The translations under genes and the position numbers were made by a program. Below the pieces are notes generated by a model, which was given only the letters and a program-made list of their open reading frames with translations, was not told the DNA's origin and ran no database searches. From Solirubrobacteraceae bacterium (GTDB taxonomy: Bacteria; Actinomycetota; Thermoleophilia; Solirubrobacterales; Solirubrobacteraceae), in the NCBI GenBank assembly GCA_036266805.1, contig DATAXK010000025.1:54497-118496 (forward strand): a stretch of 64,000 nt of DNA. The letters run 5' to 3'. Positions 43,946-52,066 of the stretch are shown in pieces. Every line of letters starts with the position of its first letter. The stretch's first letter is position 1.

Positions 43946-44021
43946 CGCCAAAAGCTCCCTCTCTTCCCAGGACCGCCGTTCGCTCGGAGGGCTCTCGCAC
44001 GTTCCTGTGCGACAGAGGGGG

Positions 44022-44049
44022 TTGACTTTTGGACAGGCCTTGGTATAAG
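44022..44049 (+). promoter_or_regulatory. Putative housekeeping-sigma promoter for the giant secreted protein pair
   Basis: TTGACT at 44022-44027; extended -10 TG-G-TATAAG at 44041-44049. Confidence 0.6.
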
Positions 44050-44249
44050 GTACCCATGTGGTCGTTCCGCATCGGGCGTCTACTAAACATAAGCGTCGGG
44101 TTTTGGGTCGGTCTCTGTGGTCGACGCTAACCGGTTCAAGCAGGGCCCTTTGTTCTCACGTTGTTGGGCGTCAGTCCAGGGGCGTTTTGTTTTGCCCGCG
44201 GTCCCGCGGGTTTCGTGTGGATCGCTCTTTTGGGGAGGGGATGGGTTAG

Positions 44250-47200
44250 ATGATCGCTCGTCGTTTGAAGCTGCCGGTGATGGTCCTTGGGTGTGTGCTG
44301 GCTGGTGCGGTGGGGTTGATGGTGGCACCCGCTTTGGCGCTGGCTGCTCCGATAACTCCGGTGTTGTATGCCGTGTCGCAACGTACCCCGGAAACCGTGA
44401 CGGTGCTCGGTGTGTTGAATCTCGAAAGCGAAACCGAAGGCGGTAGCGAAGGCGGCATTTACGAATTTCTCTATAAAGAATCGGCGAGTGGGGAATGCGA
44501 AGGAGCGGATCATTCGCTGCCGGTTCTGTGGTCTGGATCGCAGGCCCAATTTCCTGAAGGGACGCTCTCGGGTTTGAAACCGGGCAAGACCTACGCGGTG
44601 TGTCTACGTGTGGAAAACAGCACCGCGGAAACGGCTGTCAGTAAACCATTCACGGTTACGACGGCGATCGCTCCTGAAGTGCCGACGGGCGAGGAAGCCA
44701 AACCAATTGCCGCGAGAAGCGCGACGTTGCACGGCGTGTTGAACCCCGGTGCCGAACGCACTGTGGAACCCGGCAACTATGAATTCGTGTACAGCCGCTC
44801 CTCGAGCGAATGCCAGGGTCCGGAAGAAAAGACGACTTCGCCTGTCACGGGCAGCGGCGCAAAGGGCGAGACCGTGGAAGCACCGGTAGCAGAACTGCTC
44901 TCGCATACTCAGTACACGTTCTGTTTGCGTGAGAGCAACGAAGCGTCGCCAACCGAATCGGTGTTGGGGGCGCCCGTGACGTTCACGACGCCGGCGGGGG
45001 CGCCGCGGATAGAAGCAGAGTTCACGAGCGAAGTAGCTTCGACCAGCGCGACGCTGCACGCAACGATCAACCCAGAAGGCGCCGAAACCTCATACGTTTT
45101 CGAATCCGCTCCCGTTGGCGGTACGTTCGCTCCTGTGGTGGAAGCCGGGGGCGAGGGTGATATCCCGGAAGGAGCGGCCGGTGTGCCGGTGAGCGTGCAT
45201 GTGCAGAAGGGCTTGGTTCCTGGCGCCACCTATGAGTTCCGTGTGGTCACGAGCAACTCGGTGGGAAGTGTGACCGGTGGGACGGTCACCTTCACAAACC
45301 AGCATGCGACGACCGAACTCGCGCTTCCCGATGGTCGCCAGTATGAAATGGTCTCCCCGCTGCAGAAGGAGGGTGCGCTGTTCTTGCCTATTCGCGAAGG
45401 CATCATCCAGGCCGCGGCTGACGGGAACGCTTTCACCGACGAGAGCGCCTTCGAGCCGATCGAAGACGGTGCTGCCGGCGCTTATGGTTTCCATGAGGCC
45501 GATTTCTTTGGTCGTGGTCCCGGTGGGTGGGTATCCAAGACGATCACGCCGCCTCACCCTGCAAGGGGCGCGGTGCCACTATACGGGGGGCAGGAATATC
45601 GGTTTTTCTCGGAAGACCTCTCCGAGGCTATTTTGCAGCCGTTTGGTCCCACGACTCCGCTCGCGCCCGGTGTGAGCGAATCGACACCCTATATCCACAC
45701 CGATTATCTAAATGGCGATCAGGGTGAACTATGCGGTACGGATTGCTTTCAACCGCTGGTGACCGAAGCCAACGTGCCGGCCGGCACAAAGTACGGGGAA
45801 GAAGAAAGCGAACCCTGTAAGAACCGTAGGCCCATCTGTGGTCCAGAAGTTGTTGCGACGAGCCCAGACTTGAGCCACGTTCTGATCAGCTCGGATGTCG
45901 CGCTGACAGCCGGCTCCGGTGGGGGACGGTATGAGTGGGTAGGCGGCAAGTTGACATTCATCACCACCGGGCGCGTGGATGCGATCTCCGACAACGGGTC
46001 GCTCGTCATCGATGGGTCCTATGAAGGGATGGAAGGGTTGCTGTTGCACGACGCCGCGACGGGCGAAACGATTCGCCTCGACGTGCCGCAGGGTAGCGGT
46101 CTGTCGCCGGTACCACCCGGACAGGCGTCGTTCCAAGCAGCGAGCGCCGATGTCTCGAGGGTCTTCTTCACCAGCGAACAGCCGTTGGTCGGGGGTGTGA
46201 GCGAACCGGCTCTCTATGAATACAACCTGAACGCTCCGGCGGGTAGCCGCCTGACCGATATCAGCGCCGATGAGAACTCCGGCGAAGCGGCTGGTGTGAG
46301 CTCGGTGCTGGGGACGAGCAATGACGGCTCATATGTGTATTTCGCGGCGAGCGGGGTGCTCGCACAGGGCGCCACTCCCGCGAAATGCGACAGCGAAACG
46401 CCCGTATGCATGAATCTGTACGTGCATCACGACGGGACAACCACGTTCGTCGCGGGACTCGGTGAAGAAGACTATCCGGACTGGATCGTCAACCGGGGCG
46501 ATCGCGTGACCGCGCGCGTGTCACCTAACGGGCAGTGGCTAGCGTTCATGTCAAACCGCGATCTGACGGGTTATGACACCGATGACGCCGTCAGTGATCA
46601 TCCCGATGAGGAGGTCTACCTATATGGTGCCTCCGCCGGCAAGCTCGTCTGCGCTTCGTGCGATCCGACCGGCTCACGCCCTGTGGGAGTGGAATACGGC
46701 GAAAGCGAATCCAGGCTAGTAGACGGCCTCAATGTCTTTCCCGATAACACGTGGATCGCGGCGAACGTGCCGCCATGGACGGACTTCGAAAGCTCTAAAG
46801 CGAGCTATCAGTCACGGTATCTGTCCGATAGCGGCCGCTTGTTCTTCGACAGCGGCGATGCACTTGTTTCGCAGGATGTGAACGGCACACAGGATGTGTA
46901 TCAGTACGAGCCGCACGGTGTGGGTAGTTGTACGTCTGGCACTTTGACGTTCAGTGAACGCTCGGATGGTTGTGTCGATTTGGTCTCCTCGGGGGAATCC
47001 GCTGAAGAATCGACGTTCCTCGACGCGAGTGAAACGGGTGGGGACGTGTTCTTCCTGACGTCCTCAAAACTCGTCGGACAGGACACCGACAATGCGTATG
47101 ACATCTACGATGCGCGTGAATGCGGTAGCCCGTCGCGGTGCTTGGCGCCCGAGTCGGTGAGTCCGCCGCCGTGTGACACGGGCGATTCCTGTAAGCCGGC

Positions 47201-47459
47201 GTCCACGCCGCAACCGGCGATCTTCGGGTCGCCTTCCAGCGCGACGTTCTCAGGCGCGGGGAACGTCACGCCGCCAATTGGGACGCCCGCGGTCAAAACG
47301 AAGGCGTTGACGCGCGCGCAACAGTTGACGCGGGCGTTGAAAGCGTGTCGTGAGAAGAAGAGGGGCAAGCGGCGAAATACGTGCGAACGTCAGGCTCGCG
47401 CGCGGTACGGCGCAAAGAAAGCGCGTAAGGCCAATGCAATCAAGAGGAGCGGACGATGA
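44250..47459 (+). CDS. Large secreted protein: 3 FN3-like domains, beta-propeller-like region, Cys/Lys/Arg-rich tail
   Basis: Signal peptide ...APALALA; three ATL(H)G/NP...YxF...L.PG..Y repeats; repeated S.DG..V.F blades; tail ALKACREKKRGKRRNTCERQARARYG. Confidence 0.85.
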   Translation: MIARRLKLPVMVLGCVLAGAVGLMVAPALALAAPITPVLYAVSQRTPETVTVLGVLNLESETEGGSEGGIYEFLYKESASGECEGADHSLPVLWSGSQAQFPEGTLSGLKPGKTYAVCLRVENSTAETAVSKPFTVTTAIAPEVPTGEEAKPIAARSATLHGVLNPGAERTVEPGNYEFVYSRSSSECQGPEEKTTSPVTGSGAKGETVEAPVAELLSHTQYTFCLRESNEASPTESVLGAPVTFTTPAGAPRIEAEFTSEVASTSATLHATINPEGAETSYVFESAPVGGTFAPVVEAGGEGDIPEGAAGVPVSVHVQKGLVPGATYEFRVVTSNSVGSVTGGTVTFTNQHATTELALPDGRQYEMVSPLQKEGALFLPIREGIIQAAADGNAFTDESAFEPIEDGAAGAYGFHEADFFGRGPGGWVSKTITPPHPARGAVPLYGGQEYRFFSEDLSEAILQPFGPTTPLAPGVSESTPYIHTDYLNGDQGELCGTDCFQPLVTEANVPAGTKYGEEESEPCKNRRPICGPEVVATSPDLSHVLISSDVALTAGSGGGRYEWVGGKLTFITTGRVDAISDNGSLVIDGSYEGMEGLLLHDAATGETIRLDVPQGSGLSPVPPGQASFQAASADVSRVFFTSEQPLVGGVSEPALYEYNLNAPAGSRLTDISADENSGEAAGVSSVLGTSNDGSYVYFAASGVLAQGATPAKCDSETPVCMNLYVHHDGTTTFVAGLGEEDYPDWIVNRGDRVTARVSPNGQWLAFMSNRDLTGYDTDDAVSDHPDEEVYLYGASAGKLVCASCDPTGSRPVGVEYGESESRLVDGLNVFPDNTWIAANVPPWTDFESSKASYQSRYLSDSGRLFFDSGDALVSQDVNGTQDVYQYEPHGVGSCTSGTLTFSERSDGCVDLVSSGESAEESTFLDASETGGDVFFLTSSKLVGQDTDNAYDIYDARECGSPSRCLAPESVSPPPCDTGDSCKPASTPQPAIFGSPSSATFSGAGNVTPPIGTPAVKTKALTRAQQLTRALKACREKKRGKRRNTCERQARARYGAKKARKANAIKRSGR

Positions 47460-50400
47460 GCGTGGGTATGATCAAGAGAAGCCTCATTGGCGTTGTCGCG
47501 CTCGCACTTGTCAGCCTGTGCGTGCAGGTCTCATCGGCGCTAGCTGTTCAACCGTGGTGGAAGCTGCAGGTCGATAGTGCCCCCGCGATCCTGCAGCCCG
47601 GTCAGGGACGAGACGAGGTTCAGGAATTGACGGTCACGGCAACCGGTGGCAGTTTTATTTTGGGAAACGAAACGAATTCGTACGTGTCTCATGAATTTGC
47701 CTGGGATGCTACGCACCAGGAATTGCAGGAAGGCCTTGAAGATATGTTCGGTAGGGGCGACGTGGAAGTTCCGAGTGGGCAGGGCAACGTTGCGGGTAGC
47801 GATCCTTACCGGATCATATGGAAAGATCGCTACATCGAACGGTTGGAATTCGGGGGCGGGAGCTTGTCTGGAGGTGCGACGATCAAGCAAGTCAGTCGGG
47901 GTCGCAGCGAAGCGACGCTGATCTTGACGGCGGCAAATATGGGCGATAGGGATCTGACGGGGCCCGTGAAGTTGACCGCGAAACTACCGGCGGGCATGAC
48001 CGCGGTGCAGATCACCGGGTCAGGGGGGTTCGGCAACGTCAACCCGATTGAATGCGATGCGGAAACGCTGAGCTGCACATACACGGGTATCACGGCTCCC
48101 TACGAGCAGGTCGAGTTGGTCATCCAGGTGAGCTTGAATCCGGGGGCGCATTCGGGTGAAGCGGTTGAACTGTCGGCGAGTGGCGGTAACGCTCCGCCTG
48201 CCAAGAGGACGCGTGCGATGACCGTCGGGAGCGTGGCGCCGTCGTTTGGTGTCGAGAACTATGAATTGGCTCCAGAAGAAGAAGGCGGCTCGCCCGCGAC
48301 GCAGGCCGGTTCACACCCATTCCAGCTCACGACAACGGTGACGCTCAACGGGGGCCCACTCGAAAACTATTACAACTCCAAATATCAGCCACAACAGGTC
48401 GAAATGCCCAAGGATCTCGTGTTCAAGATCCCTCCGGGCTTGATCGGCAACCCGACGCCGTTCCCGCAATGCACGGTCGCGCAATTCGACCAATCGAACC
48501 GCGAGGTAGACGAATGTCCAAACGACACGGCGATAGGTGTCGCGTCGGTCACGATCGTATTCGAAGCGGTTGTCGCGACCTTTCCCGTGCCGCTCTTCAA
48601 TCTGACGCCGTCTGCCGGTGAGCCCGCACGCTTTGGCTTCGACGTGCTGAACAACCCAGTGTTCCTGGATACATCGGTACGCACGGGTGGTGATTATGGC
48701 GTGACGGTGAAGGTCACGAACATAACCCAACAGGTCGCGTTTGTGGGTAGTCGAGTGACGTTCTGGGGCGTGCCGGGCGATCCGCGCCACGACGAGCAGC
48801 GTGGCTGGAGCTGCCTCGCCGATGGGCATGAGCAGCTAGAATCCGCAGGTAGGTTCGCGCCGTGCACTGCCGTGGGTCAGCGTTTGCCGCCGCCGTTGTT
48901 GGAGTTGCCGACCTCGTGCACGGGACCGTTGCAGACCACGCTGGAAGCCGATTCGTGGCAGAGCGAGGGTAGTTTCTCGTCCGTTGGTCCCAATACGCCG
49001 TTGCCGAGCCTCGATGGTTGTAACAAGCTGCCGTTCAACCCCTCTATCAGTGTCGCACCGGACGGGCAGGCTGGTAGTACTCCCACGGGGTTGACGGTGG
49101 GTATCCATCTTCCTCAGGAAGTGAGTTTGGATGGGGAAGGGTTGGGTGAGGCCGTTGTGAGGAACACGACTGTCGCGTTGCCCGAAGGAGTCGTGTTGAA
49201 CCCCTCTGCCGCCGATGGCCTGTCCTCTTGCTCTGAAGGCGAGGCTGGGCTCTCCGAAGATCGTGCGGTGTCGTGTCCCGATGCGTCGAAGGTTGGGACG
49301 GTGAAGATCAAGAGTCCATTGCTGCCGAATGCGCTTGAAGGCGCGGTTTATTTGGCAGCACAAGACGCCAACCCGTTCGGGAGCTTGGTCGCGCTGTATG
49401 TGGTTGCTGAAGATCCTGTGTCTGGGACGTTGGTCAAGGTTGCTGGCGAAGTCGTGTTGAATCAGCAGACCGGCCAGTTGGTCTCGACGTTCAAGAACAC
49501 TCCCCAACTCCCGTTTGAAAACTTTGAACTGCATTTCTTTGGTGGGGAACGAGCACCACTGGCGACCCCCAGCGCTTGTGGGGCGTATACGACGAACGCG
49601 TCGATAGAACCATGGTCTGGTAATCGGACGGCTGAACCGTCTTCGACGTTCGATGTGATCTCCGGCCCCAACGGCAGTCCCTGCTCCAACCCGCTGCCGT
49701 TCGGTCCGTCTTTGACGGCTGGCACGACGAGTATTCAGGCTGGTGGGTTCAGCCCGTTTACGATGACGATGAGCCGCACCGACGGCCAACAGAACCTGAA
49801 GGTAGTGCAACTGCACATGCCTTCGGGCCTATTGGGTTTGGTGTCCTCGGTCGATCCGTGTGGGGAACCACAAGCCGACGCGGGTACATGTACTGCCGCG
49901 AGCCTGATCGGGCATACGACCGTCAGCGTTGGTATTGGTGGGGACCCGTATAGCGTGACCGGCGGGGAAGTGTTCATCACCGGACCGTATGAGGGTGCCC
50001 CCTACGGACTGTCGATCGTGGTGCCGGCGGTAGCCGGCCCATACAACCTCGGGAAGGTCGTGGTACGAGCGAAGATCGAAGTGGATCCGTTGACGGCGAA
50101 TTTGACGGTTACGACCGATAGCAGTGGTCCGTATGCGATCCCGACGATCATCGATGGCATCCCGTTGCAGATCCAACACGTGAACGTCACGATCGACAGG
50201 CCAGGATTCATTTTCAACCCAACCGATTGTGCGCCGTTGGCGGTCAGTGGGAGCCTAACGAGCGATCATGGCGCCGTATCCACCTTGAACGTGCCGTTCC
50301 AGGTCACCAACTGTGCGACCCTCGGCTTCAAACCGAAGTTGACGGTCGCTACTTCGGGGAAGACGTCGCGTAAGAACGGGACGAGTCTTTTGATCAAGAT

Positions 50401-50986
50401 CGCTTATCCCAAGGGAGCGATCGGCAAAGAAGCATGGTTCAAGGGCGCGAAGTTCGATTTCCCAAAACAGCTTCCCGCTCGCCTGACGACGCTGCAGAAG
50501 GCTTGTCCGGCGGCAACGTTCAATAGTAATCCCGCCGCTTGTCCCGCGGCGTCGAAAGTTGGGACGGCCATCGTGCATACCTCTGTGCTACCAGGAGTGC
50601 TCAACGGCGTTGTGTATTTCGTGTCGTATGGTGGTTTGAAGTTCCCTGAAGCGGTGATCGTGCTGCAGGGCGATAACGTCACCGTCGATCTGCACGCCGA
50701 AACGTTCATCAGCGAAAAGACCGGTGTGACGAGCGCGACGCTTAGGAGCATTCCCGGTGTTCCTTTCGAAAGCGTCGAAGTCAACCTCCCGGCTGGTCCG
50801 AACTCCGAGTTCGCCGCCAACGGGAACCTATGCACAGCCAAACTGGTGATGCCCAACGCGTTTACCGCACAAAACGGGCTGTCCATACACCAAAACACCC
50901 CCGTTACGACCACCAACTGTCCAAAGCACAAGACGACGAAGAAAGTCAAGAAGAAGCCCAAACACAAGAAGACCAAACACAAGTAG
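47456..50986 (+). CDS. Large secreted protein: DUF11/Ig-like domain, four Cys-pair repeat modules, Lys-rich tail
   Basis: Signal peptide ...VQVSSALA; ATGA overlap; repeated P.G...C-x(9-14)-C...S.VG motif; tail CPKHKTTKKVKKKPKHKKTKHK. Confidence 0.85.
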   Translation: MSVGMIKRSLIGVVALALVSLCVQVSSALAVQPWWKLQVDSAPAILQPGQGRDEVQELTVTATGGSFILGNETNSYVSHEFAWDATHQELQEGLEDMFGRGDVEVPSGQGNVAGSDPYRIIWKDRYIERLEFGGGSLSGGATIKQVSRGRSEATLILTAANMGDRDLTGPVKLTAKLPAGMTAVQITGSGGFGNVNPIECDAETLSCTYTGITAPYEQVELVIQVSLNPGAHSGEAVELSASGGNAPPAKRTRAMTVGSVAPSFGVENYELAPEEEGGSPATQAGSHPFQLTTTVTLNGGPLENYYNSKYQPQQVEMPKDLVFKIPPGLIGNPTPFPQCTVAQFDQSNREVDECPNDTAIGVASVTIVFEAVVATFPVPLFNLTPSAGEPARFGFDVLNNPVFLDTSVRTGGDYGVTVKVTNITQQVAFVGSRVTFWGVPGDPRHDEQRGWSCLADGHEQLESAGRFAPCTAVGQRLPPPLLELPTSCTGPLQTTLEADSWQSEGSFSSVGPNTPLPSLDGCNKLPFNPSISVAPDGQAGSTPTGLTVGIHLPQEVSLDGEGLGEAVVRNTTVALPEGVVLNPSAADGLSSCSEGEAGLSEDRAVSCPDASKVGTVKIKSPLLPNALEGAVYLAAQDANPFGSLVALYVVAEDPVSGTLVKVAGEVVLNQQTGQLVSTFKNTPQLPFENFELHFFGGERAPLATPSACGAYTTNASIEPWSGNRTAEPSSTFDVISGPNGSPCSNPLPFGPSLTAGTTSIQAGGFSPFTMTMSRTDGQQNLKVVQLHMPSGLLGLVSSVDPCGEPQADAGTCTAASLIGHTTVSVGIGGDPYSVTGGEVFITGPYEGAPYGLSIVVPAVAGPYNLGKVVVRAKIEVDPLTANLTVTTDSSGPYAIPTIIDGIPLQIQHVNVTIDRPGFIFNPTDCAPLAVSGSLTSDHGAVSTLNVPFQVTNCATLGFKPKLTVATSGKTSRKNGTSLLIKIAYPKGAIGKEAWFKGAKFDFPKQLPARLTTLQKACPAATFNSNPAACPAASKVGTAIVHTSVLPGVLNGVVYFVSYGGLKFPEAVIVLQGDNVTVDLHAETFISEKTGVTSATLRSIPGVPFESVEVNLPAGPNSEFAANGNLCTAKLVMPNAFTAQNGLSIHQNTPVTTTNCPKHKTTKKVKKKPKHKKTKHK

Positions 50987-51034
50987 AGAGGCCATCGCCG
51001 CCGGAAGAGGCTCCAGGTCGCTAGCGTTAGCCAT

Positions 51035-52066
51035 GTGACACAAGCATTCTGCCGCCACAACCGTTTCGTCCAGCGTTGCCCGATCTGTCGCGACACCATA
51101 CCCGGACAGAAGCTCAAGCCCAAGCGGCAAGGTGGCGGCAGCGCTCGGACCAACGGTGGGATGGGGGCGGCGTCGCGTGGCGGGGCGAGCGCCGTGCGCG
51201 CAACCGGGCGCACCTACGCGCGTCGCACCCAGGAAGTGCGGGTGCATCGCGAGGCGCGCTCCGAGGACGACGGCTATCGCTGTGAGCTTGTTCCGGGACT
51301 TCACTCATCCGAGGACGCGCTGCGGCTGGTGCGGGAGATCGGGTTCGCAAGCGGGAGACTGCTCACGCTCACCGCCGCGCCGCCCGACCTATACGCGGAG
51401 GCGCGCGATTGCGGGGACGTCGAGCAGACGACCTGGATGTGCTTCCTGGCCGCCTATCTGTCGCCCTTGCAAGGCGCACAGCCCTTTGTCGGCATCCGCC
51501 AGGCACTGCTCTCGAGTTGGGCATCGGGCACGATCCCCGACATCGCGGAGGTTCCGCTCGGACCGCGCAGCTCCCACGACCCTGCCCGCGGTGGTGAGAC
51601 CCTGGTCGCGTACCGACGCTTCGCCGAGAACGCCGGCTCGCAGCAGCTGGCCTTTACGGGCGAGCCCGAGTGGACTCCGCAGCGACGCTTCGCGCGGCTG
51701 TTCGAGCGCCTGGCGCTACCCGGCTTCGGACGCATGGGCCGCTACGACCTGCTGGTCACGCTGGGGCGCCTCGGCCTCTACGAGCTGCGCGCCGACTCGC
51801 TGCAGCTCGTCACACGCTCCGCGCAGGCATCCGATCTCACGCCGCAGGCCGTCAAGCGCGTCTTCGCGATCGGCGATCCGCTGATCATCGAACGGCGCGC
51901 TCAAGTGCTCGCGGAGGCCGCCGCGATCCCGATCGAAGCGCTCGATCTGGCGCTTTACAACTGGAGCGTGGTGGACCCGACGCGAGAACGCGCGACGCTC
52001 GGCTTCGCGCTCGACATGAGCGATGAGCACGGGCTCGAGCAAGCTGAAGCGGCGCTCGAAGTCTGA
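51035..52066 (+). CDS. Hypothetical protein, probably alpha-glutamyl/putrescinyl-thymine pyrophosphorylase clade-3-like, with N-terminal Zn-binding motif
   Basis: FCRHNRFVQRCPIC; TWMCFLAAY, FGRMGRYDLLVTLGRLGL, ALDLALYNW resemble recalled aGPT-PPlase3 motifs; TAGCGT 7 nt before GTG. Confidence 0.55.
   Translation: MTQAFCRHNRFVQRCPICRDTIPGQKLKPKRQGGGSARTNGGMGAASRGGASAVRATGRTYARRTQEVRVHREARSEDDGYRCELVPGLHSSEDALRLVREIGFASGRLLTLTAAPPDLYAEARDCGDVEQTTWMCFLAAYLSPLQGAQPFVGIRQALLSSWASGTIPDIAEVPLGPRSSHDPARGGETLVAYRRFAENAGSQQLAFTGEPEWTPQRRFARLFERLALPGFGRMGRYDLLVTLGRLGLYELRADSLQLVTRSAQASDLTPQAVKRVFAIGDPLIIERRAQVLAEAAAIPIEALDLALYNWSVVDPTRERATLGFALDMSDEHGLEQAEAALEV

Follow-up and report, generated by a model that had tools for sequence, protein, structure and literature searches.

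An overlapping pair of genes for large exported proteins

We analysed a 64,000-nucleotide stretch of DNA from a Solirubrobacteraceae bacterium (assembly GCA_036266805.1, contig DATAXK010000025.1, positions 54,497 to 118,496 of the forward strand; hereafter the window), in which an earlier note made from the sequence alone had singled out two adjacent long genes as a candidate two-subunit surface structure. The first of these, gene A (44250..47459, forward strand), encodes an exported FN3-propeller protein of 1069 amino acids, and the second, gene B (47456..50986, forward strand), an exported all-beta protein of 1176 amino acids. Lengths and coordinates were confirmed from the sequence, as was the proposed overlap at ATGA: the junction reads ...GGA CGA TGA with the ATG of B inside it, B starting within the stop codon of A (47456-47459), an arrangement that has the geometry of co-transcription and predicts translational coupling. 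Both products are predicted to be Sec-exported, disulfide-rich, acidic, all-beta and non-enzymatic proteins. The A-B gene-pair family is described in no database, and the literature on the family, on Solirubrobacterales surface proteins and on cationic-tail anchors yielded nothing specific. Four features absent from the earlier note emerged as well: a regulator gene, R, which most cassettes carry and this copy lacks, the insertion of this copy, a conserved leader and a switch in glutamate codons.

The A protein begins with a signal peptide read from the sequence (44250..44345, residues 1-32, ending in PALALA before AP) and continues on the forward strand with three tandem FN3 domains (44346..45314, approximately residues 33-355), a large beta-propeller-like domain of about 600 residues (45321..47120, approximately residues 358-957), a proline-rich linker (47121..47306) and a basic helical hairpin with a Lys/Arg tail and the stop codon (47307..47459; helices at residues 1022-1036 and 1040-1053). 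The three FN3 domains had been proposed from the sequence and were recovered here, one as a match to Pfam fn3 (PF00041, residues 252-340, 34.2 bits against a gathering cut-off of 25) and the other two through DNA repeats spaced 324 and 327 nt together with strands of the structural model. The propeller, likewise anticipated, was detected as a single marginal PD40/TolB-like repeat (PF07676, 22.0 bits against a cut-off of 20.9) and in the model; PF07676 is present in many A homologues and the propeller is the conserved core of the family across paralogues. The overall predicted local distance difference test score (pLDDT) of the model is 76.6, with the propeller mostly at 80-90 and the linker modelled as disordered. 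This linker carries the invariant cysteines 958, 964, 975 and 981 and a near-invariant motif, IFGSPxSATFSGxGN, and in the hairpin Cys1033 and Cys1045 are invariant in the family alignment, suggesting that its two helices are stapled by a disulfide. By fold, A is closest to FN3 arrays and to the ectodomains of ROS1/Sevenless, which join FN3 domains to a propeller. The resemblance to these receptors and to TolB/PD40 propellers lies in the combination of FN3 repeats with a PD40-type propeller and is one of architecture only, at 10-11% identity and a template modelling (TM) score of about 0.13, and A lacks the transmembrane and kinase parts.

The B protein comprises two N-terminal domains, N1 (residues 33-150) and N2 (residues 151-258; together 47552..48229), four homologous modules (48239..50923; M1 262-521, M2 522-742, M3 743-952, M4 953-1156) and a poly-Lys tail, KHKTTKKVKKKPKHKKTKHK, followed by the stop codon (50924..50986), all on the forward strand. 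N1 occurs in some paralogues only, while N2 is a DUF11-like beta-sandwich, with a match to DUF11 (PF01345) of 15.8 bits over residues 151-230 that falls under the cut-off of 24.6. The modules, of approximately 210 residues, share the motif P-x-G-[LV]-x-x-N-P...C...C-P-x-x-S-x-[VI]-G and conserved cysteine pairs. Their fourfold repetition was established by profile comparison with hhalign, which gave 98% probability for M2 against M4 (E 1.7e-13), 79% for M1-M2, 62% for M3-M4 and 51% for M1-M3, and a DNA repeat inside B relates 49274 to 50540; BLAST self-comparison left the internal repeats of the pair undetected. In one further genome we observed an open reading frame (ORF) of 2427 amino acids made up of reiterated B-type modules (L051, G149:C11). 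The variability between loci that had been expected of both proteins resides mainly in their N-terminal parts, where paralogues of A have NHL, PhoD_N or extra FN3 domains in place of those seen here.

Searches of Pfam, NCBIfam, PADLOC, PHROGs and PDB sequences matched no enzyme family in A or B, which agrees with the lack of any enzyme motif reported earlier. Apart from FN3, neither protein matched a solved structure by sequence or family profile, and neither matched a characterised enzyme or adhesin over its full length. An enzyme, defence or phage identity was rejected, as sequence and profile searches returned only FN3 and PD40. A phage-tail-like N-module or receptor-binding protein was likewise set aside: PHROGs matched only the FN3 part of A, and in the viral fold library BFVD the best match to B was a DUF11 protein at a TM score of 0.10, otherwise generic DUF11, Big-1 and FN3 strings.

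A cassette of one order, duplicated as a unit

Homologous clusters of B number more than 7,400 in a large protein collection, all labelled hypothetical, and those of A more than 1,300; the named B homologues come from Solirubrobacteraceae metagenome-assembled genomes. B was present in 9 of 201 genomes sampled across the class, and all nine belong to the order of the window. The suggestion that the system is typical of Solirubrobacterales is borne out, and the A-B pair, usually with a regulator gene R, is a cassette specific to one actinobacterial order, identified as Solirubrobacterales by the names of its homologues. Among the relatives examined, 27 of 31 carry B, and in the genus of the window the number of B copies per genome ranges from 3 to at least 29.

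The two families are linked. In the complete genome G205 an A-type propeller gene adjoins all 21 B genes among the matches listed, lying directly upstream on the same strand for 20 of them. Six loci out of six in metagenomic relatives are ordered A, 4-nt overlap, B, R, where R encodes a protein of 330-350 amino acids with matches to TetR_N and to a MarR/IclR-type winged helix-turn-helix (wHTH). In a second family of the order, the FN3-propeller gene again precedes B in all six loci examined, at approximately 36% identity. The window's own 3.17-Mb assembly contains six B-type genes, four of which have A upstream. Obligate co-occurrence, which the earlier note proposed as a check, thus held at 21 of 21 listed B genes and in both sets of six, but not in the window's own genome; the linkage is tight without being strictly obligate. 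Flanking genes differ at every relatives' locus, and no transporter, hydrolase or catabolic gene accompanies the cassette.

Distances among 21 A proteins and among their 21 B partners were strongly correlated in a mirror-tree comparison (r = 0.93, none of 5000 Mantel permutations being as high), and within G205 alone r was 0.78, indicating that pairs duplicate and diverge as units. A and B are thus inherited, duplicated and diversified together. In G205 they form tandem units of approximately 11 kb in the order R, C, A, B, where C encodes a small secreted protein.

Some further features of these loci were observed. The C family consists of secreted Cys/Lys-rich proteins of approximately 270-300 amino acids encoded between R and A in the G205 tandems (for instance L017:8127-9029), with 49 matches across G205 and none in the window's genome. 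The cassettes of relatives occupy varied sites, often beside PIN/RHH toxin-antitoxin genes or transposases, and in one relative (L043:5032-10004) the insertion of a DDE transposase has interrupted A within an A-B-R cassette.

Export signals and cationic tails

Signal peptides, paired cysteines and basic tails had been noted in both proteins, and all three features were found again. Both N-termini have a Sec-type signal peptide that ends in ALA. Each protein contains 21 cysteines in all, and the 20 mature cysteines of B are invariant in 34 homologues. The bodies are acidic (isoelectric point, pI, 4.3 for A and 4.7 for B) and the last 60 residues strongly basic (pI 12.0 and 10.4 respectively). 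Beyond the signal peptides we found no LPxTG motif, no hydrophobic membrane-anchor-like segment and no C-terminal hydrophobic segment in either protein, in agreement with the earlier observation that such anchors are missing; a hydrophobic stretch at residues 358-383 of B was modelled as a beta hairpin. Pfam and NCBIfam gave no match to SLH, CWB2, GW or SlpA-type domains, and Pfam none to CnaB or SpaA.

The tails also occur outside the pair. In the window's own genome the cationic Cys-stapled hairpin forms the C-terminus of two unrelated exported proteins, one with CarboxypepD_reg repeats and the other with a long Glu/Lys-rich stalk, and a third has a poly-Lys tail, likewise after a long Glu/Lys-rich stalk (the three genes lie at C31:298747-301236, C27:200039-201805 and C27:35547-38213). 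In two of the three, then, the tail follows a Glu/Lys-rich stalk, as in surface proteins that span the cell wall. Outside this genome the hairpin is nearly confined to the A family, the exceptions being a few DUF11, YD and List-Bact-rpt proteins. That the tails are portable in this way is our chief reason for regarding them as anchoring or sorting modules.

A glutamate-codon switch in exported proteins

The pair had been described as lower in GC than its surroundings, and this proved correct in direction: in 500-nt windows it has 56-63% GC and its flanks 63-72%, and over the whole genes A has 60.5% and B 58.7%, compared with 65.7% for the genome, both below the 5th percentile of long ORFs. The range of 42-60% originally given was, however, an overstatement. 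The shift is specific to certain codons. GAA makes up 77-79% of the glutamate codons of A and B in the window, and 19% genome-wide. The same genome has three full pairs, whose six A and B genes all lie at 77-82%, and values of 0-17% were obtained for rpoB, rpoC, an EF-Tu/EF-G-motif gene (the two not told apart), atpD, eno and gap. Gln CAA is unchanged in A and B, Asp GAT and Tyr TAT are partly raised and the four-fold families barely shift; this is not a general drift towards AT.

In related cassettes the genes for the exported proteins A, B and C have 75-86% GAA, while R of the same operon, which is cytoplasmic, has 10-17%. Over the window pair, C18, C33 and C20 of its own genome, L017 and L042, the genes for exported A, B and C proteins span 75-93% GAA. 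The low value of R excludes a regional or foreign-DNA explanation, and we accordingly rejected the low GC of the pair as a sign of foreign origin, the codon shift being specific and sparing the co-operonic R. The switch is lineage-specific: A and B homologues from other families of the order do not show it, and GAA values of 0-11% were obtained for those of three other genera. A tandem of two B-like genes on contig C20 of the window's genome, encoding proteins of 1052 and 1001 amino acids whose tails are not polybasic, has GAA fractions of 0.93 and 0.88, the highest among long ORFs. When signal-peptide-like N-termini were called across the genome by a crude rule, long ORFs with a GAA share of 60% or more had one in 65 of 124 cases and those below 40% in 174 of 1304 (Mann-Whitney p of approximately 1e-17).

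In the bldA/TTA control of Streptomyces, a codon that the high-GC genome disfavours is concentrated in genes of one functional class. The present case resembles it in that a disfavoured codon, here GAA, is enriched in one gene class, and differs in that GAA still accounts for approximately 10-19% of glutamate codons in housekeeping genes, that the class consists of exported proteins and that any tRNA dependence is only putative. With aragorn we detected tRNA-Glu(CUC) alone in the window's own assembly, and neither tRNA-Glu(UUC) nor tRNA-Cys; as the assembly is 90.7% complete and tRNA-Cys is missing too, nothing follows from the absence of tRNA-Glu(UUC), which is probably an assembly gap. A far-reaching and rather speculative extension, which we think unlikely to hold, is that exported proteins here form a codon-defined class (GAA approximately 75-90%, cytoplasmic proteins using GAG) governed by how much tRNA-Glu(UUC) is available or by how it is modified, which would be the counterpart of bldA/TTA on the scale of the secretome. 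In that case the A-B repertoire would form one arm of a decoding-gated regulon, and the pair would be a new type of surface fibre, built of two proteins and anchored by a cationic, disulfide-stapled hairpin that is likewise new.

The window copy is an insertion lacking the regulator

The copy in the window lacks R, and a genome-wide search with R found none on this contig. The ORF after B (51035-52066) has a weak match to aGPT-PPlase (clade-3-like), is unrelated to R, is conserved as a single copy across the genus and does not lie beside cassettes elsewhere, which marks it as a backbone gene; we accordingly rejected it as a divergent regulator. The same backbone occurs without the pair in congeners, as gltB-gltD-FMO-aGPT-like in G208 and G203, contiguous in the former with the aGPT-like ORF directly abutting FMO, and as gltB-gltD-aGPT-like in G205. 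Because the flanking genes are adjacent in these genomes, positions 43946-51034 of the window, comprising the leader, A and B, are a 7.1-kb insertion without the usual TetR/wHTH regulator. No convincing terminal repeats or target-site duplications were seen at its borders.

The inserted cassette starts with 304 nt of upstream non-coding sequence (43946..44249, forward strand), which we read directly. A promoter-like TTGACT-16 nt-TATAAG (44022-44027 and 44044-44049, forward strand) was spotted by eye and was not called in a promoter scan of the region. The leader of approximately 190 nt contains a hairpin plus T-run (44166-44193), a second hairpin, CCCGCG-GTCC-CGCGGG (44195-44210), and the Shine-Dalgarno sequence GGGGAGGGGA (44232-44241), all on the forward strand. 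Its final 100 nt or so, with the CCCGCG/CGCGGG hairpin and the Shine-Dalgarno sequence, are common to two relatives' cassettes (L043 and L054). The leader matched no family in Rfam, its minimum free energy z-score of -1.7 is not significantly stable and covariation is weak, and we therefore regard a structured-RNA function as unproven.

Two short elements were also observed in these upstream regions. A two-codon mini-ORF, ATG GGT TAG (44241-44249), lies in or just past the Shine-Dalgarno sequence and abuts the ATG of A; the counterpart upstream ATG in relatives is in frame and open (ATGGTTTTGATG). Approximately 250 nt upstream of the A genes in L043 (4860-4885), L053, L054 and L055 there is a (TC)n tract of approximately 20-26 nt, preceded by GCTGACGCGTC, which is a candidate slipped-strand switch; the window cassette has no such tract.

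Interpretation of the pair

The account that we favour, held tentatively and at somewhat less than even chances, is that A and B together make up a non-covalently anchored surface fibre or adhesin, and the cassettes a repertoire of surface binders. After export the two proteins would form a hetero-complex, probably through their conserved parts, that is, the propeller of A, its unstructured FSGxGN segment and the modules of B. The cationic hairpin of A and the poly-Lys tail of B would hold this complex on the cell non-covalently by binding either an anionic polymer of the envelope or the surface of the membrane, the four B modules could serve as a stalk, and the N-terminal domains that vary, of FN3, NHL or PhoD_N type in A and N1 in B, would form the binding surface that faces outwards. 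With dozens of cassettes, each of which normally has a ligand-type regulator of its own, the cell may thereby have a repertoire of individually inducible surface binders.

Several observations weigh against this account or restrict it. The model of B is mediocre (pLDDT 66.5, predicted TM-score 0.42), and it matches nothing but consecutive sandwiches of the Ig, MG or DUF11 type (PrgB Ig domains, CD109, alpha-2-macroglobulin, C3/C5, SspB C123, a mastigoneme protein and a giant-virus DUF11 protein), all at a TM score of approximately 0.1, which shows the type of domain and not the architecture. The window's own genome has the two tandem B-like genes without A (C20:25199-31464, L022:5200-11465), and a distant family has one B-like gene coupled across a 3-nt gap to a gene for a 1129-residue RTX-repeat protein (L049:3388-10502, G179) and another that stands alone. 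The window's genome has one sortase gene, whose product A and B evidently do without, so that sortase-independent anchoring is a choice and not a necessity. That A and B run counter to highly expressed genes in their codon usage speaks against an abundant constitutive coat, and taken with the dozens of copies and their individual regulators it makes a dominant S-layer unlikely. The roles of propeller tip, repeated shaft, filament or S-layer that the earlier note assigned to the pair stay conjectural. Finally, polycationic tails could equally bind extracellular DNA (eDNA) or soil minerals, in which case A and B would be released matrix proteins.

This last possibility can be developed into a rival that we consider doubtful, in which the pair is a released matrix or scavenging system whose tails bind eDNA, acidic polysaccharide or minerals while the variable domains capture polymers, each cassette being induced by a small molecule through its TetR-type regulator in a logic like that of SusC/D in the polysaccharide utilization loci of Bacteroidetes. 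It would account for a dedicated TetR_N-plus-wHTH regulator in most cassettes, for the very high copy number with divergent N-terminal binding-type domains and for the want of any covalent or membrane anchor. Against it, the cassette travels with no transporter, hydrolase or catabolic gene and has flanks that vary by locus; the occurrence of the tails after Glu/Lys-rich stalks elsewhere also fits wall-spanning anchors better. Improbable in our estimate is a switchable variable coat for evasion of phages or predators or for kin recognition, with few A-B pairs expressed at once, analogous to the sap S-layer repertoire of Campylobacter fetus or to polymorphic pairs that serve in recognition, for instance TraA/B of Myxococcus. 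Genomes with 3 to at least 29 divergent copies, some in tandem arrays of 11-kb units, presumed anchoring ends that are conserved and distal ends that are variable, a (TC)n tract upstream of several relatives' cassettes that could slip, and differing genomic sites near transposases and toxin-antitoxin genes are all compatible with it, but we saw neither an invertase or recombinase nor an arrangement of silent cassettes, all copies look complete and have a start, and often a regulator, of their own, and the copy in the window is without the tract.

That B or the propeller of A is an unrecognised enzyme, for example a metal-dependent polymer hydrolase, and the pair an enzyme plus its carrier, appears very improbable. 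M1 is the best conserved module in the genus and contains the polar motifs AGSHPFQ, GEPARFGF, GGDYG and WGVPGDPRHD; throughout the order H287 does not vary. Against this, no enzyme family or solved structure was matched by sequence or profile, and the folds matched are non-catalytic sandwiches. The residues of B that are invariant order-wide are G, P, C, L and F plus four isolated polar ones, H287, N921, S1033 and T1042, which are scattered and form no cluster resembling a catalytic site, a pattern that suggests a scaffold rather than a catalyst.

Among known systems the favoured surface fibre or adhesin is closest to the fibrillar adhesins and pilins of Gram-positive bacteria (MSCRAMMs, the C123 region of SspB/antigen I/II, PrgB), which are also Sec-exported, acidic strings of Ig-like domains with a distal binding region and which include, in PrgB and SspB C123, some of the best fold matches of B. 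A and B differ from these in having no LPxTG motif, membrane anchor or sequence relationship, in being stabilised by conserved disulfides and not by demonstrated isopeptide bonds, and in that B has a propeller protein as its close partner and exists in a very large number of copies. Non-covalent retention is established for surface and S-layer proteins such as SlpA/SlpX of Lactobacillus, bound to teichoic acids (PMC11181022), and the CWB2 proteins of Clostridioides difficile (PMC4973711). In these monoderm bacteria an exported structural protein is held by a region that binds an anionic polymer, and the basic tails of A and B suggest the same principle; the putative anchor is here a disulfide-stapled hairpin of approximately 35 residues or a bare poly-Lys tail, and the codon usage of A and B is unlike that of highly expressed genes. 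The B model also aligns with runs of MG-type sandwiches in alpha-2-macroglobulin, complement, TEP and CD109, although at TM scores of about 0.1 and without the thioester motif, bait region or TED/CUB domains. We rejected a thioester protein because the CxEQ motif and any Pfam A2M match are absent; in CGEPQ (residues 802-806 of B) Cys802 forms a conserved pair with Cys812 and the Gln is not invariant.

Significance for Solirubrobacterales

From its sequence features the cassette is best placed as a new protein-pair family within the exported beta-sandwich surface proteins, and it stands out through near-obligate A-B pairing, a cationic hairpin tail and extreme multiplication, with private regulators in most copies. 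B has no relative in Pfam, NCBIfam or among solved structures and no functional annotation. The genus is known here only from metagenome-type assemblies, and we estimate that several percent of its 3-4.5 Mb genome consists of this cassette. The glutamate-codon switch, if true as a regulatory device, would matter beyond this family. Knowing what the pair does would account for much of the cell surface of these soil bacteria, and could reveal a sortase-independent way of retaining proteins on the actinobacterial envelope.

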